Positions 20,901 through 47,649 of a stretch of DNA of 64,000 nt are shown piece by piece (the stretch's first letter is position 1; each line of letters starts with the position of its first letter). The translations under genes were made by a program, and so were the position numbers. The notes beneath the pieces are model-generated. The model was not told the DNA's origin. It searched no databases and saw nothing but the letters and a program-made list of their open reading frames with translations. The stretch comes from Blasia pusilla. Taxonomy: Eukaryota. The DNA is taken from the NCBI GenBank assembly GCA_050084515.1, contig CM114271.1:49600001-49664000 (forward strand), given 5' to 3'.

Positions 20901-21529
20901 GGAGGATGTTGGAGCTTGGAGCCATGCTCATCCAACATGACGATGAGGATAGAGAGTTTGTGGTGGCTTACGCTAGTTGCTCGAACAATGGTGCAGAGGC
21001 GAAGTATAGCTCGTATGAGGTTGAGTGCTTGGCTGTAGTGTGGGTTGTCACGCATTTCAAGTGTTATTTATTCGATAACCCCTTGACCATTATTACTGAT
21101 CATTAGCCACTTAAGTGGATGATGGAGTCCAACAAGCTTATATGGAAGCTTGTGAGGTGGGCTCTATTGTTACATGAGTATGATTTCCAAGGGGTGCATA
21201 CACTTGGGACGCTCAACCAAGATGCAGATGGTTTGAACTGTAACCCATGCTCGAGTCAACCACATACGACTGGAGCTCAATGACATCGAGAGTGTGATGA
21301 GGAGTTAGTGCGAGGAGGACATGCGTCAGCCTATTGGGGCTTACTGGCTATGGAAAGCCACATTGTTCATACTTTGATGGCGAGGTGTGATGGAGAGTCC
21401 TTAGATCTAGAGGTTGGTGAGCAGACGACAGGTGGCCGAGATATTCACGAGGATGGAGTAGTCTTGGAGTACCTACATATTGGCAGCGTCACGAATACAG
21501 TGGGTGCTACAGAGTGGGATTGGATCTAG
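17970..21529 (+). mobile_element. Second, internally deleted copy of the DNMT-Gypsy family
   Basis: LTR-start homology at 17970-18133 to 5261-5424. DNMT fragment at 18140-18730 (GIRVLILFGGI, IDLVIDGWPYQG, YIMENMP). RT/RNase H at 19945-21529 is collinear with ~11700-13300. Confidence 0.85.
18940..19942 (+). mobile_element. ~1-kb solo-LTR-like insertion (copy 1)
   Basis: Interrupts otherwise contiguous gypsy sequence (..atgcatgatt | ggtatgctgaaggg..). Has TG...CA ends and is the reverse-complement homolog of 43690-44666. Confidence 0.7.
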
Positions 21530-24500
21530 GGGGGGACACTCTATGTATACCTCCTACATCACCTACCACATTTTGGGGTCGGAAACCCCTAACTTATAAG
21601 TGAATTTTTTTTCCTCCCCCTTACTTACTTTAAAACCATATTTAAAAAAATAATTTATGACCCCTATATTTTGTTAAGTAAATTTGTGTCCTTGATTTTT
21701 TCAGGGGCTTGAAAGTAAAGATAAGTACCCCTTCGCACAACGGTCTTGTATTGTTGCACTTGATAATAGGCTATTAAAAGCTTTCAGCAATACCCAAGCC
21801 ATTGCCAAACATAGTAATGATATGTAAGGTGGAATTATCTGCATGTTTCCATTGAATCAATATTTAGTGCAACTTCCACTTTCCCCATTACTTTGACACC
21901 TATGATGGAGAGGAATTGAACCTCAGTATCGGCCGGATGCTCATATGGCCATGCCGTCATCCCCCTAACCTATCCCCTCCCAAAACTAGCCTATCATAAA
22001 CTCAAAAAATGACTTCACACTATAACATGCACATCACTTGGGAAAAGACGATACGCTGCGGATGTAATCATTGATCACTCGTAAATCACAGTTATCCAAT
22101 TCATATATCCTGACTGTAAGACTTGGCTTCATGGGCAATCTCACATTTGAAATCACCATTTCAATGTCAATATATTGGCCATCACATGCATCATATGTGA
22201 ACAAGGTGTTGCTCTTACCTGTGCGCGAATACCAATTGCACAATATCTGACAAACACTGCCTATCTGTCCATCTTTTGGGACAGGTTGGTCCAAAAGATC
22301 AATAGGAGATCTACATCTATCCCATTGACTACCGTATTTTTGTTTGATGAATAGAATGCGACCTAATCAAAACTCTTTTGTAAGGACTATTCTGTTCTCA
22401 TCTAAGTCTTTTTTTTCTTCTCTTCTTTGACTTACTTGATCTAGTAGATGGTCCAACTTGTGTAGTAGACTAAAAAAAAACAGGGGGGCTGGTATTCTGG
22501 CAGGAGAGAGTAAGAGAGGAGAGGAAGAGAGGAAGAGAGGAGAGTCTCTCTTAAAGAAAAAGGGCCAAATCCGCCTCCTCTCTTCAAAACTTTTTGACAT
22601 ATTTGAAATTTTTTTTGGGCTTTCAAATTCATGAAATCTTTAGAAGAGAGTAGGTAGTGGTCCACATTTGGCCCTAAAAAAACCTCCTTTTTCCTGGGGG
22701 CCAAAAAAAAGTAGACATCATAAGACCACTACAAAATTTTTTCCATCACTCTCCATGTGAGCCTAAGTTTCTTAACATTACCTGTCTCGGTCTACAAAAA
22801 GCAGTGCCCATGGGTATTTTTGTTGGAGGACCACCCGGATGCCAACCTCTCTTTTTGCAGGGATTGTTTCCTGCATCATGGCCTCCCCTCAATTGCCCCA
22901 TAACCAACTTTTGTTGGTTATGAATCGTGTCTGCTCAAGACCAAAATTGTGAAATGTGAACACATGAGAGGATAATTGAACCAAAAGATTGTTAGTTGTT
23001 TGGAGTAAAGAGGAACTGATGTCCCTTCATTCAGATCCTAAGGCTGAGAAACCGAGAAGCTGCACCCCTCCCAACCCGTAAGAAAGCTCACCATAAGAAA
23101 GGAAAGATTTTTAGAAGTGATTTTCTTCCACCCTGCATCCACGACGATCTAACAGGTTGGGAATCCGAAATGGCAATCCGACAGGTAGTAGGAATCCTGC
23201 ACATCTTAGACAAGAAAAGAAGCCTACAACTGGTTTGACGAATGTAGGGGAACGAGCCAAACGTTAAGAAGCCCGCCACAATGCATCAGAAGTTGGTCTT
23301 ACAGGGAAAGAGTCCGATCACTCAAGCAGTCAACCTGTCGGAATCCGACAGCTTGCCTGGAAATGGTTGAAAAGTTGCAGTGGGCAAAAAGCAAAAAGTT
23401 GCAACCCGTCGGAATCATACAGGTTGCAAAATTGTAATTCTGAGTAGCTAAAAGAACACAATCCACAAGTCCAACAAAATATTCCAGCAAACTTTTACAA
23501 ACACCATTATGGGTTGAAAAAATCTCGTCCTTTATTACCTCCGAAGGAACCTCGGAAATGTACATTTGACCTAGTCTATGATTTCTTCAGCCTCGTCATC
23601 TACACATTTACTCCTAACTCTCCTCGGTGACAGTACAAAAGGAATGTCCTAGGATACAAGTGGCTCCTCTGGCCGATTGTAGACGGGGATAAAAAATGTT
23701 GGCGAATTCGAGAGCCTTGGCCCCCCCCTAGGTACGCCATAACGGTCCCATGTAACCTGATTTGAGTCCCACCACCTTCCTCAGCAGTATACCTTGTACG
23801 CTCTGCAATGTGACACCCATCCAGTATCAATATGTGCTCCGTCCTTGGTAATACCATGATGGCAATTGCACAGGTAGTAGGAATCCAACACGTCTGAGAG
23901 AAGAAAAGAAGCCTACGCTTTGCAATGCGAGTTGAGGGAAGGTGCCAAGGGAAGAAGCCCTCAGATCGCCTCTTAAGTTGGACCAACAGGAAAGAGTCAA
24001 TCAGCGACTGTCGGAATCCGGCTGGGTTGCGTGGAAGTGGTAAAAAGGTGCTGTCGTCAAAAAGTGAAAAGTTGCAAGCAGGAGAAATCCGACGGGTTGC
24101 AAAATAGAAGTCCGCGGAGTACATAGACGATCACATTTGAAAAGACATAAAAAATGTTCAGCAAACTTTTACAAGCACCACCATCATCGTTCGAAAAAAT
24201 CTTCTCCTTTATATCATCTGAAAAAAGCTCGAAACTGTACATTTGATCTATTCTATGAAATCTTTTGCCTCATCATCAAAAAACTCCCTACTCCAAACGC
24301 TGCAGTCAAGCTAGGTCGTTGAGTTCTTTGAACTCACTCGTCATCATCCGAGAGCTCTTGCAAAATTACTTTCGGCCTTGCCCTCCCAATTTTCGGAATC
24401 GTTGGAAGTGACGATGGAGTCACTACCAATGGTGGGTCTGGAACCGGAGCTCTCGGCTTCGGTGGAGAGTTGTACGTCCCAACGAGCCTTTCGTATTTTG

Positions 24501-24939
24501 CATTTTCCTCCTTGCAAAGGTCAAACAGTTCCTGCCTTCCCTTGAGGTAGAGAATGTTCCTGCCACTCTGCTAGGCGCCTTTGATACTTGCCCCTCAAAG
24601 TCCCACTAAGTCGAACACCAAGTCACCCGGCCTTGAGCAGAGCTCGATGAGCGTTTGCATAAGGGCTGGTGATATTTCCCTTCCTCCCAGAAGTGGGGTA
24701 CTGTCTTGCATGTAAATTCCCGGGGGGGAATTGTACAAACTATCTAAGCTGTACCCATCTGAGCATGCATCCACAGGATCCTGGATCTTGAACACCTGGA
24801 AATTGTGCTCGGGCCGAACGAAGCAGTACACGTAGGAGTGGTCCATCTGTAAAGAGGCACGTTGGAAACAATGTCAGCAACTAAAGAAGTCGACTTGACC
24901 CTAGAGAACTTTTTCAATTACTAACTTTGGATCAACCTG

Positions 24940-25310
24940 TCAGAGTCCGACGGGTTGTTTTGTCCCTGACCAACCCGTCGCCTTCTGATGGGTTGGTCGG
25001 GACAAAACAACTTTCCGTCGGGCTCTCCGTTGTTTTTGTCCGTGAGCAACCCGTCGGAAGGCGACGGATTGCTGGCCTAGAGCAGCCCATGCTCGGCTGA
25101 GAGCAACCCGTCGCTTTCCGGGAACACAAGGAAAAACCAAAAGCAACTGCAACCCGTCGGGTTCCGACGGGTTGCAGGTACACCATGGTTTTCCCTGTGT
25201 ATCTGGGAAAGATGCAACCCGTCGGAAACTGACGGGTTGCTCTCAACCGAGCATGGGCTGCTCTAAGCCAGCAACCCGTCGCCTTCCGACGGGTTGCTCA
25301 CGGACAAAAA
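24940..25310. repeat. Intronic palindrome cluster forming a long fold-back
   Basis: Multiple CAACCCGTCGGNNNCCGACGGGTTG units; 25030-25115 is an inverted copy of ~25225-25310. Confidence 0.9.
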
Positions 25311-26554
25311 AAACGGAGATATACTATCTGAAATTAACACTCATTGAGCCTTACCCGAATTTGAAAATATATTTGAGATTATACTACAGGAATTGAGCCT
25401 TACCCGAATCTGACTCGTCGCGAATCGGAGTGGGTACTCATTTTTTATGATCCACGATTGCGCCAAATGGGGCAATTCTCCACCTCCCAATCGGACATGT
25501 GCTGCCCCATCTCCATGTCGTACATGGAGAATGTCTCTCCATCAGGCGGCGAAGCCCACAATTTCAAGGCTGCCGGTAATTTTCCCCAGGTACTTGCATT
25601 CTTACACTAGACGAGGTACCTGAAGACCATCCGTTGGGCAGCTTTTACTCGAACTGAATCGGCCGTCTGCTCTTGTAGATCTCGCTTCTTCTTTGCTTGA
25701 TCCCGCTTGTTCCCCTCGATTTCTTTGTCAAGCTCTGCCTGAGGGAGGACGCAAACCTTGAACATTGTCTTGAATCCTGGGTTTTTGATTGGCTTGTCCC
25801 GGATGTCGTCGAGCCAAACCTCGAAATCTATAGAACTTTCCAGGTTTGCTTCATCCGAAATGGGCTCTAATCTTTTGAGCTCCGCTTGTAGACCATCCAG
25901 CACGGACTTCCCGATAACCCGCAACGCGTCCCAGAATGACCATTCGCGTAGTCAGTGGGAGATCACTGGATCGGACATACCCGGAGGATGGTGTGCCGCC
26001 CTCTTCTGGGCCTCTGTGCCCTCGAGACTGATTTTCATCAGTCGGATCCTCCTAAACTCCCTTATGCCGGACAACGCAAACCGATGCACGCGATCCGGGG
26101 AACACTTTCTCCCCAATCCGACCTTGCGGATCTTCATCCTTTTCGGGCGCTTGATAATCGCCTTCGGCTCCTTGTAAAACTCCACCAAGTTCGGGGTTGA
26201 GAATCTTGATGTATCGCGCATCTTGCTAGCCGTGTATTTCGTGGATGAGATATCTGCGGCTTGATGAATTTCGCGCTCGGCCGGATACTTTCTCCCTCGC
26301 TCCGGCTCGGTCGGCGCTCTTCTTCGGGCTTTGTATCTTTCAGCAAAGGATGGTTACGGTTGCATCTTGGGAAATAAACTTATTTGCCCAAGTTTTCTTT
26401 TTTATCGAGCACCCTTTGCAAGCATCGATTTTGGCGTCGCCAAGAACCCCTTGTACTCTCCCGGGTGCGTCGTAAGCACCTTCTTCACCCGGTCGCAGTC
26501 CTGGATCCAGTGGTGGGTGACATTCCCCTCCGATACAATCCTGCACATCCAAAC

Positions 26555-27185
26555 TCAACCCGTCAGAAAAATTTGTAAGTTACATGGGTTCCTGCAACCC
26601 GTCAGACTCTGACGTGTCGTCACAGGTCAAGGTCGGATTCTAGAAACGAGGTAAATGATGCAACCCGTCGGAGTCCGACGGGTTGCATTCAGATTTGCTA
26701 ATGCCTGGTTTCAACCCATCGGACTCTAATGGGTTGTGCAATTGAACATACTAACATCAACATAGCAACCCGTCGGAGTCCGATAGGTTGCGCAATTGAA
26801 TGGAAACTTGCAATTTGACGCAAAATTTGCTAAACCAACTTCCAAATGCAACCCGTCGGACTCCGACGAGTTAATTTCGGCCAAAAATAGTTTCGAGTCA
26901 AGCAACCCGTCGGACTCTGACGGGTTGCTTTGGGCAAAAAACATACTAAACCTGCGGTCAGTCAAACAACTCGTCGGAGTCCGACGAGTTGCTTTCTTCA
27001 AAAAACATCCTGAAAAAGCGTTGAGTCGAGCAACTCGTCAGAGTCCGACGAGTTACTTTCGGCAAAAAAAAACCTAACCCATTCATCAATCGAGCAACTC
27101 GTCGGAGTCCGACGAGTTGCGTTTGGCCAAACGCATCCCAAAAATAGTGCCGACCCAAACAACTCGTCGGAGTCCGACGGTTTGC
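26555..27185. repeat. Intronic array of ~27-bp palindromes with variable spacers (copy A)
   Basis: About ten GCAAC(C/T)CGTCGGA(G/C)TCCGACG(G/A)GTTGC units at ~50-85 bp period. Confidence 0.92.
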
Positions 27186-28485
27186 AGCAAGAAGATACTC
27201 ACGTGTTCATGGCATGCATTGCCATCTCCACCGTTGCCATGTGATGAGGGAATGGATGAAGGACCACTGCCTTCACGCAAAAATGTGCCTCCAAGGAGTT
27301 GGGCCGCTCCTCTGCAAACTTGGTCCACGCCATGAACGTGTGATTTCCATCCCAGATGAAGAAATACAGATTCCTCATCCAGCTGAATTCCGTGCCCTCT
27401 ACTTGCCTTCTAAAATCCTGGTCTCTCATCCTCCAGAATGTGTCAAGCTTATCCAACTCCTCCTCCGTAACCAAGGCTTGGGTTCCATGCTCATCGTAAG
27501 GCTGAACATAGAAGGGAGGAAAGCTGTCGACGTAGGATGCTGTCGCCGCCGATTGTTTAAGCTTCGCGATGTCCTCGTCGGAATGAATTTCGCGGACGTA
27601 TTCCATTGTCCGCAATCGGCAGAGTGGAATCCTCGCGGCGTTGTGGCCCTCCATGAGTGCCATTTGCTTTACCACTTGTCAAAACCGGGACAAGATCAAT
27701 AAGCTACACTGAATTCCCAATGAATTGCAATTCACATAATTCAAAAAACCCAGATCCTCTCTTACCCGCTCAAAAATTGGGTCGGTTTCTTGACCAACCA
27801 ACTTGTCTGAGACAGAAGCTGGCAAATCGATTGGGAAATCGTTGATCGGATAGAGGTCGATGTCTTCCACCGGGCTTGGAGACGAGAATGACCGCTCTCC
27901 GGCTTCTTCGGCAATGTCCACCATCTCCACGCTGGCGGTCCTCATGACCTCGTCGTCCGTGATTTGAACTTCTGGCGTTTCCGCTATGTTGATTGTGTTC
28001 CCGGACTTCATTGGGGACATTTCCCGCATCTCAACACTTTCGGTTGGATAGGCAGGGCTATCGTCAATGGCTATCGCTTTTTCCCTCCTCGCTTTAGCCA
28101 ATTCTGCTCTCCTCACTGACGCGTCTAGACGCTTCTTTTCTCTCTTTTCGTCGGCGATCCTTTTCTTCAAGGCCTGCGACGTCTTAGCCTCTGCGTTCTG
28201 TCTATCGAGCGCCTCTTGAACACGTCTCGCAAGAAGCTCCTGGTTGTGCATCTCCGCTTCCCTTTCCCGCTCCTCGATTTCCTGCTGCCTAATTTCATTT
28301 GCCAAACGAGGCCCTGGAGATGCAGACGCAGGAGTCCTAATGGACTTCGGAGTGAAGCTCCTAGACTTGTTTGCTTCTGATTTTTTCCTCGTCATTTTTT
28401 CCGGAAATGCCTCCACCTATGTCCACGATGAATCGCTTGATCAGTCGCCTTGCTGATGTCGAGATGAGTCGCCTTGATGGGTAGC

Positions 28486-28585
28486 TCGAATCGTCTCGCG
28501 ATCGTTCAGTCGAACCGTCTTGCTCTCGTTCGGTCAAACCGTCTCGCTCTCGTTCGGTCGAACCGTCTCGCTCTCGTTCCCTCGT
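28486..28585. repeat. 24-bp tandem repeat (~4 units) in putative 5' UTR
   Basis: tcgaaccgtctcgctctcgttcgg repeated; appears as SNRLALVR x4 in the ORF track. Confidence 0.85.
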
Positions 28586-28702
28586 ATCGACTCGCGATGA
28601 CTCGCCGTGTGAAACGCCCCTTGGTATCTGATCAGTTGCTGCGCGGGAGAGAGAGGAATGGAGATCGCGAAATGAGAAACCGGAAATGAGCGATTTCTGC
28701 CC

Positions 28703-28710
28703 TATTTATA
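28703..28710 (-). promoter_or_regulatory. Putative TATA box of ParB-MTase-like gene (copy A)
   Basis: TATAAATA on the minus strand ~290 bp upstream of the ORF start, conserved in copy B at 37199-37206. Confidence 0.55.
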
Positions 28711-28799
28711 CTTTTCTAGCCGTCGGGCTGACTGTTGGGTCCTGTTGTCCTTTCGACGGCGACGTGCCGCAGGTTACCGAAATCCGGACGTGAAAAAAT

Positions 28800-29420
28800 G
28801 GCAACCCGTCGGAGTCCGACAGGTTGCGCGCCTTCGCCGTCCTGGGTACATTGCCACGTGCGCGAGCAACCTGTCAAAGACCGACGGGTTGAGCGCCTCC
28901 GCCGTCTTTGGACAAGAACACGAGGTACCCACGCAACCCGTTGGAGACCGACATGTTGCGCGCCTCCGGCGTCTTCGGACAAGAACGGGACGTACCCGCA
29001 CAATCCGTCGGAGACCGTTGGGTTGCACGCTTCCCTCGTCAAGGGTTAACAACGCGGGCTTCCCACGCAACTCGTCGGAGTCCGACAGGTTGCACGCTTC
29101 CTTCATGTAAGCACCACAAGGCGAGGCCCTTGCGCAACCCCGTCGGAGGGCGACGGGTTGCACGCCTCGCCGTCTTTGGGCAAGTAAGTGCGGCATCCGC
29201 GGAACTCGTCGGGAACAAATGGTTTGCACGCCTCCGGCATCTTTGGGCAAGAAGGAGCGGTATCCGAGCAACTCGTCGGAGAGCGACGGGTTTCCAGCTT
29301 TGACCATGTTTGCGTTTGAAGGTAAGGCAGAAGCGTGCAACCCGTCCGAAGCCGATGGGTTGCAGGCTTCGCTTAGCTTGGGTTAATTGTTGACTTACTA
29401 GGACTCCGATGGGTTCCAAC
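28800..29420. repeat. Upstream (promoter-side) palindrome cluster, copy A
   Basis: Repeated GCAACCCGTCGGAG(T/A)CCGAC..GTTGC variants with related GC-rich spacers. Confidence 0.88.
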
Positions 29421-31819
29421 AAAATGAAGTGTGCTTCGCAACCCACGTCTCTGCTTCCCAAATCCGGTAACACATTGCAACAGAATTGAATGTGTTGCAA
29501 CAGAATTGGATCCATTGTGTCAGACAATGTCACCTACCGAATTCATCTTGTTAGTAAAAAAATCATCAGAGTATCTGTTTTCCTATTCACTATAAATTAA
29601 AAATTCTCATTCTCATTCTCATTCTTTTTCTCATTCTCACCCTCCTTCCGTACGAAATTTCTAGGAATGGATAATTATGTTAAGCTCACTTGTGGCAGTC
29701 ATCTGGCGGCCCTTCCTCAATCAGAAATCATTCGACCCCAAGCTCGTGAGTCTTTCATAGCAGTGGATGAAAATTTTCTCTCTGTTCGATTTCTTCTCCA
29801 AATTGGAACCATCTTTGTATCCAAAGATGTTAGGGTGGACGGTACGGAAGACATAATAGGTGAGACGGTCCAGCCAGTGACCTCAGACCGTAAAGTATGG
29901 AATCTCCTACCTCTAGCAAATGGTCAATATAGAGTTTACGGCCTGCCCCTGAATTCGTTTGTTTCCCAAGTAGACGGTCTAGAATTTCCTAGTGCTCCGA
30001 GCTCTACGTTTGCAACTCCAAGCTCTGCAGATCCGGGGGCTGGTATTCTGGCAGGAGAGAGTAAGAGAGGAGAGGAAGAGAGGAAGAGAGGAGAGTCTCT
30101 CTTAAAAAAAAAGGGCCAAATCCGCCTCCTCTTCTCAAAACTTTATGACATATTTGAAATTTTTGTTTGCTTTCAAATCCATGAAATCTTTAGAAGAGAG
30201 TAGGTAGTGGTCCACATTTGGCCCTAAAAAAACCTCCTTTTTCCTTGGGGCGAAAAAAAAATAGACATCATAAGACCACTACAAACATTTTGTGATCTCC
30301 TCATCTCGGTCAACAAAAAGCAGTGCCCTTGGTATTTTTGTTGGAGGACCACCCGGATGCTTACCCTAAGCATCTACTCCAAGGCATCTACTGCCTGAAA
30401 TTTCTACCTCATCTACTTCTGAACCTGCCCTAACTAAAGCCTCTTGAGCAACATTGATGGCATAGGATCGACTTGTCTCTTGGACATGCTTGAAGGTGAG
30501 ATCTACCACTATATTCTTCCCATGCTTGCTTCTTCTCAATCTGGTTCGAGCCCCGCCCTCAGTTCACACCTCCACTTAGCTCCACCTACACAAATCTTCC
30601 AGAAATCACTCCTTGGATCCTCTCAACTCCATAGATCTCTCCCTTGGATTCTCAAGCTTTATGGCCTTCAAATGAGGTCCTCTAGGCTTCCATGAGGAAT
30701 CTTCTAGCCCACAAGAGTCCAAGCATTTGAGCTCAGCCTCCATTGACCTCTTCTTAGCCCCTTATTCTTCATTTCTTGGCCCTAACAATCAGATCCACCC
30801 CCTTGGTTCAAACCCTCCTCTACAACAACAATCAAGCACTCTATCTCCTTCATTGGATACCCTGGAGACTCCCTAGTGCCTACACCATTTCCCTTGTCTC
30901 CTCTAGGCTTGAGGTCAATGGAGTGACTTGGCTGCATTATCACCTTGTACAATCTTCTTGACTTGTTCTTGGACAGCCTGCTGCTGGGCCTTTCTCTTGC
31001 ACCACCTCCACAAGTCCAAAAAACATATTCCAGAAAACTTTTACAAACACCATTATGGGTTCAAAAAATCTCGTCCTTTATTACCTCCGAAGGAACCTCG
31101 GAAATGTACATTGAACCTAGTCTATGATTTCTTCAACCTCGTCATCTACAAATTTACTCCTAACTCTCCTCGGTGACAGTACCAAAGGAATGTCCTGGGA
31201 TTCAAGTGGCTCCTCTGGCCGGTTGTAGACGGGGATCGAAAATGTTGGCGTCGAGAGCCTTGGGCCCCCCCTAGGTACACCATAACGGTCCCATGTAACC
31301 TGTCTCGAGTCCCACCGCCTTCCTCGGCAGTATACCTTGTACGCTCTGCAATGTGACACCCATCAAGTATCAATATGAGCTCCGTCCCCGGTAATACCAC
31401 TATGGCAACCGCACAGGTAGAAGGAATCCAACACGTCTGAGAGAAGAAAAGAAGCCTACGCCTGCCTTTACGAGTTGAGGGGAAGGTGCCAAGGGAAGAA
31501 GCCCGCCAAATTGCCTGATCCGAAAGGGTCCGATCAGGCAACCTGTCGGAATCAGACAGGTTGCCTGGAGGTGGTAAAAAGGGTCCAGTGGTCAAAAAGC
31601 GAAAAGTTGCAAGGAGGAGAAATCCGACGGGTTGCAGTGGTCATAAAGTGAAAATTGCAAGCAGGAGAAATCCGACGGGTTGCAAAGTAGAAGACCGTGG
31701 AGTACATAGACGATCACATTCGAAAAGACAAAATGATCACTAAACATTTACAAGCACCACCATCGATCGAAAAAGTCTTCTGCTTTATATCATCCGAAAA
31801 AAGCTCGGAACTGTACATT

Positions 31820-34800
31820 TGATCTATTCTATGAAATCTTTTGCCAAATTATCAAAAAAATCCCTACTCCAAACAAGCAGCTGCGGTCAAGCCGGTCGTT
31901 GAGTTCTTTGAACTCACTCGTCATCGTCGAGAGCTCTTGCAAAATTACTTTCGGCCTTGCCCTCCCGATTTTCGAATCGTTGGAAGTGACGATGGAGTCA
32001 CTACCAAGGGTGGCTGGAACCGAGCTCGGCTTCGTGGAGAGTTGTACGCCCAACGAGCCTTTCGTATTCTCCCTTTGCCTCCTTGCAAAGGTCAAAGCGA
32101 TTCGCCTTCCCTCGAGGCGAGAATGTTCTGCCCACTCGCCAAGCGCCCGATACTCGCCCGTGAAAGGCCCACTAAGTCGAACACCAAGTCACCCGGCCTT
32201 GAGCGAGCTCGATGAGCGTTGCATCGGTCGGGCGACTTTTCCTTCCTCCCGAAGCGGGTATCTTTGTCTTGCATGTAAATTCCGGGGAATTGTACAAACT
32301 ATCTAAGTTGTACCCATCGAGCATGGATCCACAGGATCCTGGATCTTGAACACTGGAAATTGTGCTCGGGCGAACGAAGCGATGAGACGTAGGAGTGGTC
32401 CATCCAAATCAAAGACGAAACAATGTCAGAAACTAAAGAAGTCGCCTTGAGAAGATTTTCAATAACTGACTTTGGATCAACCTGTCGGAGTCCGATGGGT
32501 TGTTTTGTCTCGGACCCACCCGTCGGAACCCGACGGATTGCAATTGCTTTTGGGTTTTCCAAGTTGATTTTGGTTTTCGGATGCAACCCGTCGGAAGGCG
32601 ACGGGTTGCTGGCCTAGACCAGCCCATGCTCGCCTGAGAGCAACCTGTCTGATAGCAACCCGTCGCTATTAGATGGGTTGCATCCAAAAACCAAAATCAA
32701 TTGCAACCCGTCGAGTTCCGACGGGTTGCAGGTACACCGCGGTTTTCCCTCTTTATGTGGGAAAGATGCAACCCGTCCGAAACCGACGGGTTGCTCTCAG
32801 CCCGAGCATGGGCGCTCTAAGAACCCGACAACCGTCGCCTTCCGACGGGTTGCTCACTGACAAAAAACCCAGGATCGACTCTCATTCTACACATCATTAT
32901 AAGATAATTGAAATTATTATACAGAATATAGCCTACCCGAATCGACTCGTTGCGGATCGGAGTGGGTACTCATTTTTATGATCCATGATTGTGCCGTCCT
33001 CCACTTTAGCGACCTCTTGACGACCTTTGGAGGTTGAAGATCTCATCCTCGCTCCCTCCGGTCAACACCAAGAAGCAGCCCCTGTCACTCGAGATAGGCG
33101 TCGCAAAGGAGAACAAAAGTGCAATCTGGTCATAAGTGAGCGGCGATTCCACTCGGTACCTCGTCCGCAGGATTTTCACCCCAAAGTCGCAACCCGAGGG
33201 CAGATCGGCGATCAAGAGATCCACCGCAACCTCTTCCACCACTCCATTCACCGCCCGGCAGCGTGCCCGTTTGTTGGAGCTTCCTTCCCAGCGTTGTCAA
33301 TTTTTCGATGGCGTTGTCGACGCTTGAGAAGCGAAAGTATTCGGCTCATCCAAGAAAGAGGTGTGGCGAAGGAGGACGCTTGTCCGGTCGTTGTTTTTCT
33401 GTGTCTTCCCAAGGATGATGGGCTGTATTCTCCTTGGGACAACCGGGCACCTCTCGCTTCCGCTTCTCTCTAGTCTGGGGACGGCTTGTCGGGGTTTCGA
33501 TGACCTCGGATTCTGGTGGCGTTTTTCTCGCCGAGGACCTGGTCCGACCCTCTCTTCCCGCTCGTCCGGACGATTCCGCCTCTGGCCTCTCATCTTCAGG
33601 CTCTCTTTGGGAAGTCTCGGCCTCTGAATTTTTCCCTCCCCTCGCCTTGCCTTTGAGACCATTTGTGGATTTGTCTTTGCTGTCCAGGACCTTGAAGCCA
33701 ACTCAACTGTCTCGTGGGCCCGCTCTTCTGCATCTCCTCCGAAGAAGTCTTCAGTGGACAAAATTGGGGATGTCGTCTTGTCGAGCCCCATCGCATCATG
33801 AAGCACTCGTAAGTCCTTATCCGCAATGTCTTCTGGTGCGTTGAAGTCGAGCCAAATGGGGCAATTCTCCACCTCCCAATCGGACATGTCTTTGCCCCAT
33901 CTCCACGTCGTACATGGAGAATGTCTCGCATCCGGCGAAGCCCACAATTTCAAGGCTACCGGCAATTTTCCCCACGCACTGTGTTCTTACACTAATGGGA
34001 CGAGGTACTGAATACCATCCGTTGGCGCTTTTAGTCGAACATTATCGGCCGTCGCTCTGTAGATCTCGCTTCTTCTTCTTGATCCCGTTTGTTACCCTCT
34101 ACTTCTTCGTCAAGCTCTGCGAGGAGGGCGCAAACCTTGAACATGGTCTTGAATCCGGGGTTCTTGGTTGGCTTGTCGGATGTCGTCGAGCCAAACCTCG
34201 TAATCTCCGAACTTTCAAGGTTTGCTTCGGCGAATGGGCTCTAATCTTCGAGCTCCGCTTGCGGCACCGTCCCAAAGACAAACTTCCCGATTACCCAACG
34301 CGCCCGGTAACGACCATTCGCGTAGCCAATGCGAGATCACTGGATCGGACACACCTGGAGGATGGTGTGCCGCCCTCTTCTGGGCCTTTGAGCCCTCGAG
34401 ATTGATTTTCATCAGTCGTATCCTCCTGAACTCACTAATCCCGGATAACGCAAAACGATGCACGCGATCCAGCGACACTTTCTCCCCAATCCGACCATGC
34501 GGATCTTCATCCCTCTTCGACGCTTGATAATCGCCTTGAGCTCCTTGTAGAACTCCGGACCAACTTCGGGGTTGAGAATGCTGATGTATCGCTGCATCTT
34601 GCTCGCCGTGTATTTTGTTGCAGCAGATACAGCAGCTTGGATGAATTTGGCGCGTTCAGACGCAGATACCTTCTCCCTCCGCTCCAGCTCTAGTGCAGCG
34701 CTTTTCTTCGCGGCCTGTATCTTCGACCAGCAAAGGATGGTTACGGCTGCATCTTGAGAAATAAACTTGTTTGCCCAAGTTTTCTTCTTAATTTGAGCAC

Positions 34801-36950
34801 CCTTTGCAAGCATCTGATTGACGAGGGCATCACCCAAGAACCCCCTGTACTCTCCCGGGTGCGTCGTAAGCACCTTCCTCACCCGATCGCAGTCTTGGAT
34901 CCAATGGTGGGTAACATTTCCCTCCGATACAATCCTGCACATCCAAACTCAACCCGTCAGGAAATTACATGGGTTCTTGCAACCCGTCGGACTCCGACGG
35001 GTCGTCACAGCTCAGCAACGGATTCTAGCAACAAGCTAAATGATGCAACCCGTCGGAGTCCGACGGGTTGCATTCAGATTTGCTAATGCCAGGTAAGCAA
35101 CTCGTCGGACTCCGACGGGTTGCTGGACTGCACGCTTTTTCGGATGTTTTTTTAAGATTGCAACTCGTCGGACGCCGACGACTTGTATGATTGAACATAG
35201 ATTTAACTAGTTGTTGGCCCAAAGCAAACCGTCGGAGTCCGATGGGTTGCTCGATAGGCCGCCTTGTGAGGTTGTTTTTTTAAGAATGCAACTCGTCGGA
35301 CTCCGACGACTTGTATGATTGAACATAGATTTAACTAGTTGTTGGCCCAAAGCAAACCGTCGGAGTCCGATGGGTTGCTCGATAGGCCGCCTTGTGAGGT
35401 TGTTTTTTTAAGAATGCAACTCGTCGGACTCCGACAAGTTGCTCGAGTGACTGCAGGTTTAGAAGGTTTTTGCCCAAAAGCAACCCGTCGGAGTCCGACG
35501 GGTTGCTTGCCTCGAATCTATTTTTCCCTAATCAACCCGTCGGAGTCCGACGGGTTGATTTCGGCCAAAAACAGTTTCGAGGCAAGCAACCCGTCGGACT
35601 CCGACGGTTTGCTTTGGGCCAAAAACTAGTTAAATCTATGTTCCATCAAACAAGTCGTCGTAGTCCGACGAGTATCAATCTTAAAAAGACATTCGGAAAA
35701 CCGTGCAGTCTAGCAACCCGTCGGAGTCCGACGAGTTGCGAAAGTGTTAAAGATACTTACGTGTTCATGGCATGCATTGCCATCTCCACCGTCGCCATAT
35801 GATGAGGGTATGGGTGAAGGACCACTGCCTTCACGCAGAAATGTGCCTCCAATGAGTTGGGGCGCTCCTTCGCAAACTTGGTCCACGCCATGAACCTGTG
35901 ATTTCCATCCCAGATGAAGAAATGCAGATTCCTCATCCAGCTGAATTCCGTGCCCTCAACTTGCCCTTCAAGTCCTGGTCTCGCATCCTCCGAATGTGTC
36001 AAGATTTTCCAAGTCCTCCTCGGTAACGAGCTTGGGTTCCATGCTCGTCGTAAGGCTGAACATAGAAGGGAGGAAAAAAGCGTCCACGAGGATGTTGTCG
36101 CTGCCGATTGTTTTAGCTTTGCGATGTCCTCGTCGGATCAGATTTGCGGACGTATTCCATTGTCCTTGCAGAGTGGAATCCTCGGGCGTTGTGGCCCTCC
36201 ATGAGTGCCATCTCGCTTTACCACCGTCGAACGGGACAAGAGGAATAAGCTACACTGAAATCCCAATGAATTGCAATTCACATAATTAAAAAACCAGAAC
36301 CTCTCTTACCAAATCGAAAATAGAGTCGGTTTCTTGACCAGCTAACTTGTGCGAGACAGGGGTGGCAAATCGACCGGGAACTCGTCGATCCGATAGAGGT
36401 TGATGTCCTCCGCCGGGCTTGAGTCGAGAATGACCGCTCTCCGGCTTCTTCGCCATGTCCACCATCTCCACGCTGGCGGTCCTCATGACCTCGTCGTCAT
36501 CGAGTTGAAGCGGTGTTGTTTCCACTATGTTGATTGTGTCCCGGACCGTGGGGACATTTCCGCATCTCAACACTTGCGGTTGGACGGCTGGGCTATCGTC
36601 AATGGCTATCGCTTTTTCCGCTCGCTTTAGCCAATTCCGCCCTCCTCACCGACGCGCCCAGGCGCTTCTTTTCTCTCTTTTCGTCGGCGATCCTTTTCTT
36701 CAAGGCCTCGACGTCTCGGCCTCTTCGTTCGTTTATCTAGCGCCGCTTGAACACGCGTCTCGCCGAAGCACTTGGTTGTGCATCTCCGCTTCCCTTTCCC
36801 GCTCCTCGATTTCCTGCTTTGCCTAATTTCATTCGCGAACGTGGCGCAGAGAGAAGTCGACGCAAGAGTCCTAATGGACTTGGGAGTGAAGCCCGGACTT
36901 GTTGGCTTGTGTTTTTTTCCTCGTCATTTTTGCGAAAATGCCTCGCCTAT
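31820..36950 (-). pseudogene. ParB/Srx-like + beta-class amino-MTase-like gene (copy B, heavily frameshifted)
   Basis: FFIWDGNHRFMAW; VDLLIADLPS (~33195-33224, motif IV-like); RPGDLVFDLVGLSRASIGRLASGQNIL (motif I-like). Intron 34935-35760 has a GTAAGT donor and TGCAG acceptor. Confidence 0.7.
34950..35740. repeat. Intronic array of ~27-bp palindromes (copy B)
   Basis: About 13 units. Includes a direct duplication (~35150-35280 vs ~35280-35410) and inverted spacer copies. Confidence 0.92.
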
Positions 36951-38573
36951 GTCCACGATTTAATCCCTTGATCGATCGCCTTGCTGATGTCGAGATGGGA
37001 GCTCGTCTCGCCTCGGTGGTTAGCTCGAATCGTCCTCGATATCGCCGGTCGAACCGTCTCGCTCTCGTTCCGTCCCTATCGACTCGCGATGTGTCGCCGC
37101 GTGAAATGCCCCTTCAGATCGATCGCTCTCTGGCGGGAGAGTGAGGAGTGAGGAATGAAGATCGCAAAATGAGAAACCGGAAATGAGCGACTTCGCCCTA
37201 TTTATACTTTTCTAGCCGTTGGGTGACCGTTGGGTCCGTCGTCCCTTCGACGGCGGCGTGCGAATGTTACGGAAGTCCGGACGTGAAAAATCGCAACCCG
37301 CCGGAGTCCGACAGTTGCGCGGCCCGCCATCTCCTGGGTGCGCCGCCACGTCGCGCGAAAGCAACCCGTCGGAGCCCGACGGGTTGAGCGCCTCCGTCGT
37401 CTTCGGAAAAGAACGCGAGGTACCCACGCAACCCGTCGGAGACCGACATGTTGCGTGCCTCCGCCATCTTGCGAACGTCGCCACGTGTGCGAGCAACCCA
37501 TCGGAGACCGACGGGTTGAGCGCCTTCGTCGTCTTCGGAAAACAACACGAGGTACCCGCGCAAGCCGTCGGAGACCGACATGTTGCGCGCCTCCGCCATG
37601 TTTGGGACGGGAACGGGACGTATTTTGGGCAATCCGTCGAAGATTGTTGGGTTGCACGCTTCCCTTATCAAGGGTAAGGAACGATGGCTTCCCGTGCAAG
37701 TCGTCGGAGTCTGGCTGGCTGCTCCCGACTATTTGACTACTCGGAAAAACTAGGGTTTTTACCTATTTTTCTTCGTTTCTATTAATTGAAAAAAAATTCC
37801 CGCACCATGATGCAATATAGGGTAAGATAAACCTAGTAACACTACTCCTAAAACCACCTACGTCATATTACTATGACTCCTCCGACGTCTAAGTCGGAAC
37901 CATCAATCTAGGCTTCTCCTCATACAAGGGGGCCGATCAGATTAATGGTGCTTAGAGAAGTGGATGTTGAGAATCCAACATAGTCTGGCATTCATTCCCA
38001 CTCCACCGCCCTTAATTCAAGATGGCAAGGGACTTCTCGATAGCCTCCATTCTTCAGCCAATAGGCCTTTAAACTTGACCTCTCAATTTTTAATAGTTGG
38101 GCAATTTTCTTTCTTAAGAACTCAGGATCCAAAACAGGTGCACCAACATAGATATAGGATTTATTTATGTAGTTGGTAACCATTGCCATACTCATAGGGT
38201 CTTGTCTACTTATCTCAATACATGACAAATCAAGATAACGCATGACTTATACTTTGAGATCACTCAACCAAGGCTCATAACCATGAAACTTGTTTTCACG
38301 ACACCCATTTGGTTTTAACTCGCATCGAGGTTTCAAATTCAGATCCTTATGTTTATTAACTTCATTTGTCCATACATCATGCTTGGATCTACTTTCCCTA
38401 CCCCTTGCATAAGTAGTAACAGTGGGACAATATGGAAATCTGAGTAAAATCACAAAATCAGAAAAACTTAAATTGCACTTTAGCAAAGTGGGAGCCCTTA
38501 AAAATTTTACTGACCAGAATTCTAGCTTTGGACAATTAATGTAGGCTAGTAAACGTGTTGAAAATTGTGGTAT

Positions 38574-38577
<4 letters not shown>

Positions 38578-38623
<46 letters not shown>
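38578..38623. repeat. (GA)n microsatellite
   Basis: Direct repeat run. Confidence 0.95.
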
Positions 38624-38627
<4 letters not shown>

Positions 38628-40756
38628 TCCAACTTTACCTATACTTTGGCCTCCATCAGTAGGACTTAGAGTCATCCTAGGCAAGGGACATGATTGACTC
38701 GCGCTGGGAGGTAGCTCAGATCCTCCTCTATACATAAGCTGGGGTGGACCTCTTTGATAGGGATGTGGAGGATCTCATCCCCCACGCTAAGTTCATTGCC
38801 ACATGAAAATTAAACACAAGTTATGAGTGAATAGTGATACAAAACAAAGAAAATTAACCAAATATATGAAATCTATGAACATATACTTACAAATGAAACC
38901 CATGGTTGTTGTGAGGACACACTACTACCAGCCCACTGTTTGTGTGCTCCATAAGGCCATGAACCATATCCTTGCCGCGGGGTGCCGGGGAAAACCACCC
39001 ATCTAGTGTGGGATTCCATTGCATCTCACTAGATGGCCATGCCTCACTAGGATATGGTGGTGGAGGACCACATCGTCTAGATCTTCCCAAGGAAAAGTCT
39101 TTATTTGATTCTCTTAGTGCATTCCAACGTTGAGGTTGAAAAGGAGGACTTTCTCTAGCATAGTTCCCTCCGTGCATTTAGGGGGATTTTGGAAGAGATA
39201 CAAGATAATCAAGTAATCAAAAACAATGGAATTAAACTATTACCTAGTCAACCTTAACAATATTACCAAAATTTCTTGGACATTTCCATTGGAGAAAAGA
39301 AACATGCATAACCTACCCATGAATCTTGTAAGTGATCGTGATAAGGCAAATCTTCCTCTTGCCTATCATAATCATCCTCCTTGTTAGAGGACATAACGGA
39401 AATCTGATTTTGTGCAAAAGGAGTCAACGTGCACTCTTGTGAACTTACAACACTCTTAGTATCTCCCAATTCGCTTATCTCCTTTAAGCAAAGACTTTGC
39501 CTTGGTGGCTGTTCTTTTGCCTCTACAAGTATAGAATGATGTCTCTTTCTCCTACCAGACCCTATTACATTTGACAAACTTAAAAAAAAACCAACCATGT
39601 CAATTTTGAGATTTCACTCAATAAGGAAATGACACTACTATTCATGGTCTCCTTGTACTAATAAATATTCTTATTCACACTTACTATAGCAAACGATCAG
39701 TACTACCAAAGATGGCATCTTTGCAAGCCTTGATCGCCAAAATTTGTTGCTTTTCGCATCTCTTCATAAGGATTTGGTAACACTTTCTTCTCTTGGTCTT
39801 GTTGAGATTCACTCATGGAATTTGAGTAACTTGGGACACCTAAGTCTGGCCCTTCCATCACACAAAGCTCCATCTCTCGATGTAGGCTTAATGGCTTCCC
39901 TTGCAAACCTTGCTCAAGTTCATTTTGGGAAGTTAATGAAACCTTGAAGCAATGAATCACTTAGATCCACCCTATTAAGATCCTCCGCATCACTTGGATT
40001 CATGCTCTTAAGATCAACCTCATTTTTTTGCCCTTTTCCATCTTGGCAGTAAGTTTCCTCTGCAACCACTACCATATCTATGTCCAATGGACAGCGTGGA
40101 AGAATGTCATTATATCCCACTTTCCTCGTTGCTATATCTACAGCGATATTATCTAAGCTAGAATATGGAAGTTTCTCTTGAAATGGTTGCTTTGGCTCTT
40201 CTTCCACATACACACTTATAGGAATTATACTCCAATCATTATCAATCACATCATCATATATACCAATCCTATCCACCTGTATCTCACTAAAAGTGGATCT
40301 TCTTCTTCTTTTTAAGGACCACAATTGCCACTCTACACCATCTAATAACTCACCACTCCTCTCACATCTGCCTTCATTGGAGAGAAGTGCTTCTATATGA
40401 GCTCGGCTCCCTTTTAGATTGTGTGAGAACATGTCCACAATCAACTCTGGAAAAAAATAGAGCAGCCCTCATTGTCAAGGTTGTCAATAAAGAAACAACC
40501 TACATCAACCTTCAGAACTATGTACTCTTCAGTCAAAGCTTTCATGTTCAGACTCATCACTTGATGAGGTATCTTCCATACAAACCTGCACTGGAATTGC
40601 ATTTGCAAAATCCCTACGTGCTACTACGCGCAGCATGGGATAATGTTGTGGATCCAAATGCTGCCAACTATGCTTCTTTGATGTTGGCCCCAACACCTCT
40701 CAATTAGAACAGACAAGATCAAGATCTGCGTGATTGGATGAAGGAAATTTCAGTAG

Positions 40757-45000: not shown

Positions 45001-46140
45001 TGTTCAAGTATGTTATCTTGAGTTGCCACTTGGTAAACATGATTCTCTAGCTGCATGTAGCTCGCTTGCAAAGTTTCAACAAAATATAGCTGTGACCAAA
45101 ACCTCAAAATTTATTAACTCATTTTTTGACCCGCTCTTAAACTTCCAATTAAAATAGACTCTCATGATTTTTCATCTTGTCCATATATCTCATCTTCAAT
45201 TGAAACTTGGTAGGCATGATCCCCAGGGTGTATTTAGCTCTTTCAAAAACTTGCAAGTCCAATGGAGTTGTGACCAAAACCTTAAAATTTATTAACTCAT
45301 TTTTTGACCCACGCTCTTTAACCTCCAATTAAAATGGAGTCTTTTGATTTTTCATCTTATCCAAGTATCTCATCATCAATTGAAACTTGGTGGGCATGAT
45401 CCCCAAGGTGTATGTAGAGTCCTAGAAAAGTTTCAAGTCCAATGGAGTTGCGACCAAAACCTCAAAATTTATGATATCATTTTTTGATGCACGCCCTTAC
45501 ACTTGCAATGAAAATGGAGTCCTTTCATTTTTCATCTTCTCCAAGTATGTCATATTGATTTGAAAATTTGTAGACATGATTCCCTAAGTGAATTTAGCTC
45601 CCTTGAAAATTTTCAACAAAAATAGAGCTGTGATAAAAATCTCAAATTTTATTAACCCATTTTTTTACCCGCGTCCTTAAACCTCCCATGAAAATGAGGT
45701 CTTTTCATTTTTCATCTTGTTTGAGTATGTCATCTTGAGTTGAAACTTGGTAGACATGATCCCCAGGATGTATGTAGCTCCCTCAAAAAGTTTCAAGTCC
45801 AATTGAGTTGTGACCAAAACCTCAAAAGTTTTCATATCATTTTGTGACATGTGCCCTTAAACCTCCATCTTGAATTGAAACTCAGTAGATATGATTATGA
45901 GGGTGTATGTAACTCCCTTGAAAAGTTTCAAGTCCAATGGAGTTGTGACCAAAACCTCAAAATTTATTAACTCAGTTTTTGATCCGCGCCCTTAAACCTC
46001 CAATTCAAAATGGGTTCTTTTGATTTTTCATCTTTTTCAAGTATGTCATCTTGAGTTGAAACTTGGTAGACATGATCCCCTAGGTGTATTTAGCTTCGTT
46101 GCAAAGTTTCGCATAAAATGGAGTTGTGACCAAAACCTAA
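42100..46140. repeat. ~180-bp tandem repeat array (~17 units), interrupted by solo-LTR-like insert
   Basis: Landmark ttttgacccgcgcccttaaacctccaat recurs every ~179-180 bp (e.g. near 42640, 43045, 43405, 44770). Confidence 0.95.
43690..44666 (-). mobile_element. ~1-kb solo-LTR-like insertion (copy 2)
   Basis: TG...CA ends; reverse-complement homolog of 18940-19942; interrupts the 180-bp array. Confidence 0.7.
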
Positions 46141-47049
46141 AAAATAAATTCACTCCACAAATTTATACTTTCCAATTTGACCATCAATATCAAAAACATT
46201 GCTTTATTAGCTAAAATGTTACAAAAAGGGATTCTTTGAAAATGACATTGGTAAAATAATCTTTGGAAAAGAAGTTTTGCTATGACTATTTACTAATATG
46301 TTTTACTAAAGTCATAAATTACTCTACTAATCTAGGTCTAAGGTTGGGTCTGGTGGATTAAGATGTAGGCGGTAATTTGGCGGCTCAAGAGTTTGAAGTC
46401 CGATGGATCGGCAACGATTTCCTATAGAAATTGTTTCATTATCGGAGGAAATGTATGAACTATCCATGCTATGATTGATGGGTTGAGAGTTTGGAACAAC
46501 ACGCATGAGAACATCATTATCATTAGGCTCATCAACTAAGTCCACTCTTTGAACGTTCAAAGATTGTGGAGGAGCATCTTGCATAGGTTTACAAGACTCG
46601 ATGGAATAATTTTGAATTCCTACTTGTGCAAAAATCTGAGGGTGTTGGTTGTGTTAGCTGAAGCGCTAGGTAGATTCACTTCTCTCAAAGTCCTCCGTTG
46701 TTGCTCTTGGGCGTGCTCTCGAATCCAATGTTCCATTACATTATCATCTTCGTCTCTTCCAGGCCCGTCGGAGTCAACATTTTGAGTGTTGCCGATATGA
46801 GTATCCTGATTCCCTTTGATGCCAACGTGCCATAATTTCCAGATAGCAGATCCACATCCTCTAGGTCCTCATCTTGCAAGTTGAGGTTATCTTCATGATT
46901 ACCATCACGGTTTCGTGCATGTAAGCTAGACTCACTACTATCTTCTACAACCCTTCTAGCTTGTTCTTGTCCATCCCTTTCAAAAATTATTTCTCGTACA
47001 TGAGTCCTTGTCTTGATTTCTGAGAAACAACCTTGTCTCCAAACCTTGA

Positions 47050-47264: not shown

Positions 47265-47640
47265 GACAGATTTTTACTGACAAGATGAATTCGGTGGGGG
47301 AGATTGTCTGACACAATGGATCCAATTCTGTAACACATTCAATTGTGTTGCAATATGTTCCCGGATTTGGGAAGCAGAGGGTTGCGCATCACTTGAAACC
47401 CGTCGGAGTCCTGGTAACTCAGAAATTACCCGAAGCTTACCGAAGCCTGCAACCCGTCGGCATTGGACGGGTTGCACGCTTCTGCTAAACATTGTCGAAG
47501 CGAGAAACCCGTCGCTCTCCGACGACTTGCTGGGATACCGCTCCTTCTTGCTCGAAGATGCCGGAGGCGTGCAAACCGTCTGTTCCCGGCGAGGCGTGCA
47601 ACCCGTCGCCGTCCAACGGGTTGCGCAAGGGCGGATTGTG
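47265..47640 (+). mobile_element. Terminal fragment of the palindrome-rich element (third copy, opposite orientation)
   Basis: Reverse complement of ~29130-29560 (tttttact.acaagatgaattcgg...acacaatggatccaattctg), with palindromes. Confidence 0.8.
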
Positions 47641-47649
47641 GAAGAAACA

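Follow-up and report, generated by a model that had tools for sequence, protein, structure and literature searches.

Palindrome arrays in the non-coding parts of a decayed Blasia pusilla repeat as candidate docking sites for the element's own ParB-like protein

Why should one long palindrome be arrayed dozens of times in the introns and promoter-side regions of a repeated gene and be absent from its exons? This question is raised by a stretch of 64,000 nt of Blasia pusilla (GCA_050084515.1, contig CM114271.1, 49,600,001–49,664,000, forward strand), which was analysed as a whole and is called the window here. The window contains two tandem head-to-tail copies, A and B, of one 7–8 kb unit, about 85% identical to each other, with a gene on the minus strand. 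This gene, the only recognisable one of the unit, is predicted from sequence and structure models to encode a ParB/Srx-fold domain joined to a helical middle and a beta-class methyltransferase-like end. ParB-family proteins have parS palindromes as their sites, the KorB operators of RK2 are promoter-proximal palindromes, and in the F plasmid SopB binds an inverted repeat in every 43-bp repeat of the tandem sopC array. We propose that the 27-bp palindromes of the B. pusilla unit are putative parS/sopC-like docking sites for the element's own protein. We infer binding from the sequence pattern and a modelled fold, and attach to this reading a probability of roughly 0.45.

The palindrome has the form GCAACCCGTCGGA[G/C]TCCGACGGGTTGC. 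With up to three mismatches, GCAACCCGTCGGASTCCGACGGGTTGC gave 29 matches in the window, whereas none of 100 dinucleotide shuffles gave any; 28 matches lay within 25149–37519, and the remaining one at 47598. A looser scan used the arm-plus-gap form CAACCCGTCGG-N3-CCGACGGGTTG, with 11-nt arms, up to three mismatches per arm and a 3-nt centre. It gave 53 palindromes, 50 in copies A and B and three in a fragment of a third copy at 47271–47632, and none in the other ~48 kb of the window. The first-pass annotation of this DNA had described dozens of palindromes with spacers of ~25–55 bp, in keeping with these counts and with the spacing of 64–69 bp found here. Restriction of the motif to the element, which it named as a point to check, holds within the window (53/53 in the copies or the fragment). 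The extent that it gave, 24940–37700, was too narrow, since palindromes reach 23331 on one side and 47623 on the other. The copies, the fragment and their arrays are as follows.

22484..29560, minus strand: copy A, decayed gene copy; colinear by self-BLAST to 30035–37711 at 82–95%
30035..37711, minus strand: copy B, frameshifted; upstream end cut at ~37711–37721 (403 DNA reads diverge before 37721)
28802..29362: array of copy A on the upstream, promoter side; 8 palindromes, spaced mostly by 65–69 bp, with GAGAC or GAGTC at most centres
26595..27185: intron-2 array of copy A; 10 palindromes spaced 51–83 bp, the last four gaps 64–65 bp, all centres GAGTC or GACTC
24933..25297: intron-3 array of copy A; 6 irregularly spaced palindromes whose centres vary, the core of the array being one long foldback
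23331..23427: 3' region of copy A; 2 palindromes centred on GAATC
37362..37586: upstream array of copy B; 4 palindromes at a spacing of 65–67 bp
34980..35739: intron-2 array of copy B; 13 palindromes, for the most part at a spacing of 64 bp
32478..32794: intron-3 array of copy B; 6 palindromes
31539..31564: 3' region of copy B; 1 palindrome centred on GAATC
47271..47632, plus strand: third-copy fragment, an inverted 360-bp piece of the upstream array with an 82% match to reversed 29205–29560
Starts 47450, 47505 and 47599: the 3 palindromes of the fragment, from the looser scan

The start-to-start spacing was 64 bp in most intron-2 arrays and 65–69 bp in the upstream arrays. The intron-2 array of copy A occupies ~590 of the ~658 intron bases, and in intron 2 the arrays leave 13–17 nt free on the side of the predicted donor and ~55 nt on that of the acceptor, likewise predicted. 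In copy B, the corresponding array has a 128-bp higher-order unit in which GAGTC and GACTC centres alternate, and it holds inverted blocks (35097–35251 versus 35739–35585, 91.6%). A TATA-like sequence, TATAAATA, lies on the minus strand at ~28703–28710, between the upstream array of copy A and exon 1 and ~90 bp from the array. None of the 50 palindromes in copies A and B overlapped blocks that align with liverwort or moss proteins; the confinement to introns and upstream sequence noted at first sight is thus borne out, the introns themselves being predicted.

Each unit consists of two 12-nt arms in inverted order about a 3-nt gap; the gap was present in 53/53 units, but it was the only gap that the scan accepted. 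Across the 53 units, arm positions are conserved at 79–100%, the centre base at 51%, and 85.1% of arm cells are paired. When the palindromes were masked in copy A, the six pairwise comparisons of its four arrays yielded no match at E ≤ 0.01. Since the masked arrays share nothing, what they have in common is the 27-mer rather than the spacer. Between copies A and B, identity was 84.9% in the arms (314/370) and 72.1% in the spacers (413/573), a comparison with a built-in bias, since all arms can be aligned with one another. The intron-3 array of copy A folds back over 296 nt, with arms of 97 nt each (25024–25120 and 25223–25319) that are 94% complementary; as DNA, this foldback has an energy of −148.4 kcal/mol (z = −23.6).

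These features also bring in a different explanation, in which the arrays are neutral foldback minisatellites without function. A hairpin-prone unit would have been seeded in the non-coding parts and expanded by slippage, unequal exchange and hairpin-templated repair; exons would be free of arrays because, in the active period of the family, an exonic array would have destroyed the gene. The tandem arrangement with periods of 64/128 bp and 67 bp, the inverted blocks and the 296-nt foldback all suit this explanation, as does the content of intron 2, which differs between copies A and B (10 versus 13 units) and is rearranged. What it does not readily accommodate is the same 27-mer in four arrays with unrelated spacers, which needs either four seedings or spacers that decay faster than arms.

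The gene was mapped by tblastn with proteins of the liverwort Riccia sorocarpa and the moss Ceratodon purpureus taken from a homology search. Four exon blocks and three introns are predicted, the introns from homology, from GT..AG borders and from the many database relatives that end exactly at the exon-2 boundary. The blocks, all on the minus strand, are the following.

27766..28400, minus strand: exon 1 of copy A, low-complexity charged N-terminus from the ATG; open reading frame (ORF) 27679–28416, predicted GT donor
27199..27678, minus strand: exon 2 of copy A, predicted ParB/Srx-fold domain; DGNHT in A, DGNHR in B
25463..26540, minus strand: exon 3 of copy A, helical middle, frameshifted and truncated by a deletion; tblastn, residues 303–644 of relative P0015
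24457..24873, minus strand: exon 4 of copy A, interrupted by two in-frame stops; C-terminal, motif-I half of the methyltransferase-like domain; tblastn, residues 1057–1175 of relative P0126, E 1e-9
33051..33275, minus strand: N-terminal half of the methyltransferase-like domain, in copy B only; tblastn versus P0126, motif IV DLPSG

Exon 2 is predicted to adopt the ParB/Srx fold. Among 1.84 billion representatives, a search with it retrieved 123 relatives at E ≤ 1e-3, with identities of 35–38% for the best. The AlphaFold2 model has a predicted local distance difference test score (pLDDT) of 88.3 and a predicted template modelling score of 0.83. In a Foldseek search of PDB with this model, ranks 1–12 were all ParB, Noc or KorB, followed by sulfiredoxins, and the best match was 6sdk_A (E 1.4e-3, probability 1.0, template modelling score 0.46). 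An arginine motif of the type GxxRxxA is typical of ParB, and a similar GNHRxxA is present in copy B (DGNHRFMAW), where copy A has DGNHTFMAW. In an alignment of 20 sequences, D110, N112 and H113 do not vary, and conservation of G111 and R114 is 90% or more. In the Atlas, ParB_N occurs on 11% of the members of one neighbouring cluster, which we take as a lead only. A profile of the ParB domain run against the sequences of solved structures found a chance match alone (E 0.71).

The 178-aa block that follows the ParB exon was modelled as all-helical (pLDDT 72.6). A word-indexed homologue search with this block at near lengths returned none, and beyond it lies a weak Pfam match to Brinker-HTH (E 0.048). 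At the C-terminal end, PF01555 (N6_N4_Mtase) matched exon 4 of copy A at E 0.017 and 15.6 bits, below the 26.7-bit cutoff. In liverwort relatives the match reached 23.7–26.2 bits, just under the cutoff, and the moss relative P0129 passed it with 30.4 bits over model positions 2–217. The motifs come in the order IV then I, with DLPSG at ~33200 in copy B and the motif-I-like GDLVFDLVG at ~24640 in copy A, both aligned to P0126. The Foldseek ranking and the passing moss relative together uphold the earlier suggestion that the gene encodes ParB-like and beta-class methyltransferase-like parts.

If each palindrome is a cognate site, relatives of this gene should have palindromes of their own with other sequences. 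Named relatives occur in Riccia (many paralogues, up to 1207 aa), the fern Adiantum nelumboides and Ceratodon (1147 aa). A protein-pattern scan of metagenome contigs found 47 related loci, of which 36 were kept after 11 near-duplicates had been removed by eye. The moss protein P0129 aligned with the metagenome loci by tblastn at up to 46% over the ParB part and the middle, and in one locus over the methyltransferase part too. A palindrome family of at least three members was present in 7/36 loci; shuffled versions gave 0, and so did the 48 kb of the window outside the unit. Half of the repeated palindromes (26/52) lay within 2 kb upstream of the ParB exon, a zone that makes up 18% of the bases (binomial p 1.3e-7). 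Their rate was 0.53 per kb in this zone versus 0.05–0.08 per kb downstream, and the upstream ones were clustered in 8 of the 36 loci. The density of palindromes of any kind near the relatives' ParB exon was only mildly raised, at 1.26 per kb in the first upstream kb versus ~0.3–1.0 elsewhere; for this reason just the repeated palindromes were relied on.

In locus L020, a 26-bp palindrome, GGGTATTGGCGGCACCGCCAATACCC, unrelated in sequence to the 27-mer of the window, occurs six times. Five of the copies stand in a row, 61–69 bp apart with alternating spacers, 1.7–1.9 kb upstream of the exon. At other loci the palindrome is AGCATTCGGCGCCGAATGCT or belongs to a set around TTGGCACCAA, the outer arms of which vary yet stay complementary. 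Compensatory change in the TTGGCACCAA type amounted to 33 cells versus 12.8 ± 2.8, a signal that we discount because the 18 sequences had been picked for being palindromes. Upstream arrays thus appear to recur across relatives, and intron-filling arrays appear to be special to the lineage of the window. Like-sized palindromes with different sequences at the same place upstream of the ParB exon, one of them at a spacing of ~64 bp, are also hard to reconcile with functionless minisatellites.

Some palindromes at these loci were seen in passing. A 35-bp palindrome, GGTCGGGAGTCAAACTGCCAGTTTGACTCCCGGCC, with GAGTC in its arms, is found in five loci with ParB-like genes (L023, L026, L027, L028 and L030; for example L026:6808–6842 and 11598–11632) and may be a separate small repeat of that host. 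At L020:2–281, the relative's palindrome contains TTGGC-N5-GCCAA, which we take to be the shape of an NFI-type site, and a second palindrome of that locus, at 1251–1578, is centred on GATC. Exact scans for the palindrome of the window found 0 occurrences in viral contigs and 0 in metagenome contigs.

In the proposed mechanism, each 27-bp unit would dock the element's own ParB-like protein, and the units would have been multiplied into phased arrays in every non-coding part: on the promoter side, in two introns and in the 3' region. Docking would deliver to the element either the enzyme-like domain or a complex that represses or spreads. A nucleotide might be needed for the binding, and the protein might methylate some substrate. 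The idea of cognate sites for the element's own ParB-like protein had been raised at first sight together with a link to GANTC. The former survives as the best-supported mechanism, with the predicted ParB fold, the 53/53 restriction, the 27-mer as the sole common unit, arms better conserved than centres and spacers, the relatives' own palindromes and a like proposal in print for ParB-domain genes of algal transposons in its favour; the latter does not, as described below.

Several observations weigh against docking. The fold match is weak both in E-value and in template modelling score (0.46), though the ranking is consistent. Pfam is blind to the ParB part, with no family in exon 2 at E ≤ 0.1 and none in 14 relatives at E ≤ 0.01. 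Searches beside the ParB domain revealed neither a helix-turn-helix nor another DNA-binding fold: the 178-aa block had no PDB match better than E 0.94, and Pfam was empty there. Among the 23 relatives whose upstream sequence spans 1 kb or more, only 7 had repeated palindromes there, the other 16 having none by the rule used. The intron that follows the ParB exon is ~70–100 nt long among the relatives and held no array in any of them. The bias of the arm-versus-spacer comparison must be counted here too. Moreover, C>T and G>A changes at CG or CCG make up most of the arm substitutions, a pattern shared by any plant repeat that is cytosine-methylated and decaying. Mirror-image changes in the two arms involve 28 cells versus 16.5 ± 2.8 after shuffling, a number reached by 0/500 shuffles. 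These changes stem mainly from two pairs and are of the C>T and G>A kind at CG or CCG, and single events are multiplied by tandem copying; one-sided arm changes are far commoner. The symmetric changes and the 296-nt foldback suit a constraint at the level of the hairpin, or hairpin-templated copying, as well as they suit a protein dimer.

The centres of the palindromes bear on the link to GANTC, in which the palindromes would present this sequence to a CcrM/HinfI-like methyltransferase of the element. Many palindromes are indeed centred on GANTC, as had been remarked: 28/53 in all, with 21/23 in the intron-2 arrays and 3/3 in the 3' regions, and the unit holds 88 GANTC versus 59 expected from base composition. 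As a general feature this breaks down, for the centre is GANTC in just 2/12 intron-3, 2/12 upstream and 0/3 fragment palindromes. The repeated palindromes inspected in relatives, of the GGGTATTGGCGGCACCGCCAATACCC, AGCATTCGGCGCCGAATGCT and TTGGCACCAA types, are in no case centred on GANTC, and the separate 35-bp palindrome has GAGTC in its arms. Furthermore, the canonical catalytic motif IV of the beta class is (D/N/S)PP(Y/F/W), and the element has DLPSG in copy B, with DLPTG or DMPSG in liverwort and DTPF in moss. With GANTC in just 28/53 centres the idea fails, and we give it hardly any credence.

Both copies are dead, being decayed members of a very abundant repeat family. Exon 3 of copy A has an 856-bp deletion at 25462|25464, which corresponds to 32995–33851 of copy B (self-BLAST and tblastn), and the tblastn alignment shows in-frame stops in its methyltransferase exon. 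Differences between copies A and B are spread nearly evenly over codon positions, except in exon 2 (12/10/25), which indicates that the copies mostly diverged as dead DNA. The two genes pictured in the first-pass annotation are therefore not working genes, and any activity would come from intact copies elsewhere.

The abundance of the family is apparent from DNA reads. About 1/100 of one DNA run with the same species label was aligned to 16 kb at 90% likeness. It placed 45,785 reads, of which 946 were at least 99% alike, 15,027 were 95–99% alike and 29,812 were 90–95% alike. The summed depth was ~140–760 along the unit, and many reads were mosaics of A-like and B-like sequence. The unit is thus a high-copy repeat, and the family is probably mobile or was so formerly. 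Depth was ~166–393 in bins over the arrays versus 613–763 in bins over exons, which indicates that the arrays are the most variable part of the unit and, at 90% likeness, not an independently amplified satellite. This variability, and the near-neutral decay of both copies (codon positions near uniform save in exon 2), again favour neutral minisatellites. Taking the evidence on both sides together, we regard that explanation as unlikely, though it deserves serious weight next to docking by the element's own protein.

The foldback in intron 3 and the RNA reads bear on a further possibility, namely that transcribed arrays fold and feed small-RNA silencing of the family as a source of hairpin RNA or small interfering RNA (siRNA). 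Three RNA runs at 90% likeness gave 279, 437 and 275 reads, mostly 90–95% alike and mostly from other copies, with the first mate mostly on the plus strand. The intron-3 array does fold as a long hairpin, and low-level reads from other copies cover array sequence, for example 16 reads with loose ends at 27010 and variant letters at 26979 and 27004. The palindrome-rich region of maize Sirevirus long terminal repeats (LTRs; PMC4728375) offers a precedent. On the other hand, single units yield 12-bp stems only, and silencing does not explain the like-sized palindromes with new sequences upstream of the relatives' ParB exon, so that this origin of the arrays seems to us quite improbable. No splice joint was seen among the 15 listed of 265 joints from these runs. 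Reads also pile up at ~23724–23848, exon-like and with loose ends on both sides, as if of another copy, and 37721–38000 is the best RNA-covered stretch, with a depth of 15–30.

The ends of the unit bear on yet another role, that of subterminal or internal sites for a transposase acting in trans, with the ParB-methyltransferase gene as cargo or accessory. En/Spm carries 12-bp TnpA motifs as subterminal repeats, and the B. pusilla family is high-copy, with palindromes towards both ends of the unit (28802–29362 and 23331–23427). The algal counterparts discussed below are, in the text available on them, accessory genes of Sola1 and Plavaka DDE transposons. Against such a role, the intron-2 arrays, well within the unit, account for 23/50 sites in copies A and B. 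Terminal inverted repeats were looked for and not found, all 9 of 9 inverted pairs of at least 40 nt being palindrome-centred or internal, with unit ends that are not firmly defined. Pfam scans of the window's ORFs outside the unit (43 with 110 aa or more) and of 52 ORFs from 13 related loci revealed no DNA transposase; they yielded just retroelement pieces, one bacterial SBP match and zinc-finger matches. We consider transposition sites improbable, and docking sites for the element's own protein remain our preferred reading.

Further observations concern the borders and neighbours of the unit. Copy A possibly reaches ~30036, past which 698 DNA reads diverge. The 3' boundary of both copies has an AG-rich 21-bp repeat (22505–22544 and 30056–30095), a poly-T/A run at 22466–22476 flanks copy A, and the 3' region of copy A has an internal direct duplication (23170–23600 versus 23859–24277, 73%). 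Two further high-copy sequences border the copies, 29476–30036 (DNA depth ~760) and 37721–38000 (~560). Rfam found 0 families over 20000–40000. The third-copy fragment abuts a gag-like ORF, with retrotransposon gag/pol alongside and a zinc knuckle at 47281–47805. Other retrotransposon pieces are RVT_1 at 11938–12297 and, together with the zinc knuckle, SH3_retrovirus and RVT_2 at 47281–49778 (region to 50159). One element occurs in two copies, 10238–13305 and 18160–21526, which are 83–86% similar, and 42100–46150 is a long tandem satellite with a period of ~180 bp and many self-matches of 75–88% at multiples of ~180 bp. On the minus strand, 1340–4728 holds two long open frames of 329 and 473 aa without a Pfam family; an Atlas look-up with the 473-aa ORF (3310–4728) gave no usable neighbour (score 0.81).

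A bolder scenario, which we regard as doubtful, goes beyond docking. In it, selfish repeats of land plants would run a eukaryotic ParB/parS-like system, in which a spliced ParB-fold protein loads on lineage-specific 26–27-bp palindromes phased at ~64 bp in its own promoter and introns, spreads, and uses a rebuilt methyltransferase-like domain to write or block a mark on its own DNA. The palindrome would then be a specificity code that co-evolves with the protein. Even the more limited reading, if true, would make this a self-recognising plant repeat whose protein finds its own copies by sequence, and bacterial ParB-type site recognition would have been reused in nuclear genomes. Transposons that bind and epigenetically modify themselves, an idea raised so far only from algal genome annotation, would become directly testable, and a short, defined 27-bp site with natural specificity variants in mosses and liverworts makes for a simple test. 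If the arrays are merely foldback minisatellites, they are an ordinary trait of a decaying repeat.

Among known systems, bacterial parS, sopC and KorB sites share with the element a dyad-symmetric site that is repeated on the replicon or element encoding the ParB-fold protein. The element differs from them in its eukaryotic, spliced, nuclear setting, in a site of 27 bp versus 13–16 bp and in the methyltransferase-like domain on the protein, and no ParA partner or helix-turn-helix (HTH) was seen in it. The LTRs of maize Sireviruses have a palindrome-rich cis-regulatory region proposed as an siRNA hotspot (PMC4728375). As described in the available text, these too are conserved palindrome clusters on the promoter side of a plant repeat, hairpin-forming and fast-evolving between loci. 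In contrast to the element, Sireviruses are LTR retrotransposons without a ParB gene, and it is only here that one long 27-mer stands in phased arrays.

Closer counterparts are found in algae. A review, in the part available, lists a ParB-HTH-Dam family in chlorophytes and chytrids; the chlorophyte family has a Dam-type (group 2) methyltransferase, whereas the relatives here point to N6_N4_Mtase, PF01555. The Sola1 transposon of Ectocarpus is described as having an accessory gene for a 1104-aa protein with ParB-like and DNA methyltransferase parts. It thus resembles the present gene as a ParB-like and N6A/N4C methyltransferase combination on a mobile element (1104 aa there, 1147–1207 aa in the moss and liverwort relatives). 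The available passages on the Ectocarpus Sola1 and chlorophyte genes mention no palindrome arrays, unlike the element here. Its hosts, with moss, liverwort and fern relatives, are land plants, unlike those of the algal systems. On land-plant members or intron-filling arrays we found nothing in print, in a search that had most subscription journals outside it.

The nearest parallel is in the red alga Bostrychia moritziana, where, according to the available text of a preprint, Plavaka (KDZ-type) giant transposons carry an accessory gene, PAG3, for a protein with a ParB-like domain and a 2-oxoglutarate (2OG) oxygenase. Tandem inverted-repeat arrays lie adjacent to it, and the authors' proposal is a protein that attaches to its own element and modifies it (bioRxiv 10.1101/2025.02.11.637652). 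Compared by description only, the two have in common a repeat-borne gene, an N-terminal ParB-like domain fused to a nucleic-acid-modifying enzyme domain and inverted-repeat arrays beside the gene; the enzyme domain is methyltransferase-like here and a 2OG oxygenase there. PAG3 belongs to an element with a DDE transposase, and no transposase was found in the 64 kb here, though a giant element could exceed the window. The arrays of the B. pusilla unit, unlike those described for PAG3, also fill two introns. Since this 2025 preprint reports inverted-repeat arrays beside transposon genes with a ParB domain, we regard the B. pusilla unit as a land-plant form of an element type already described in algae.

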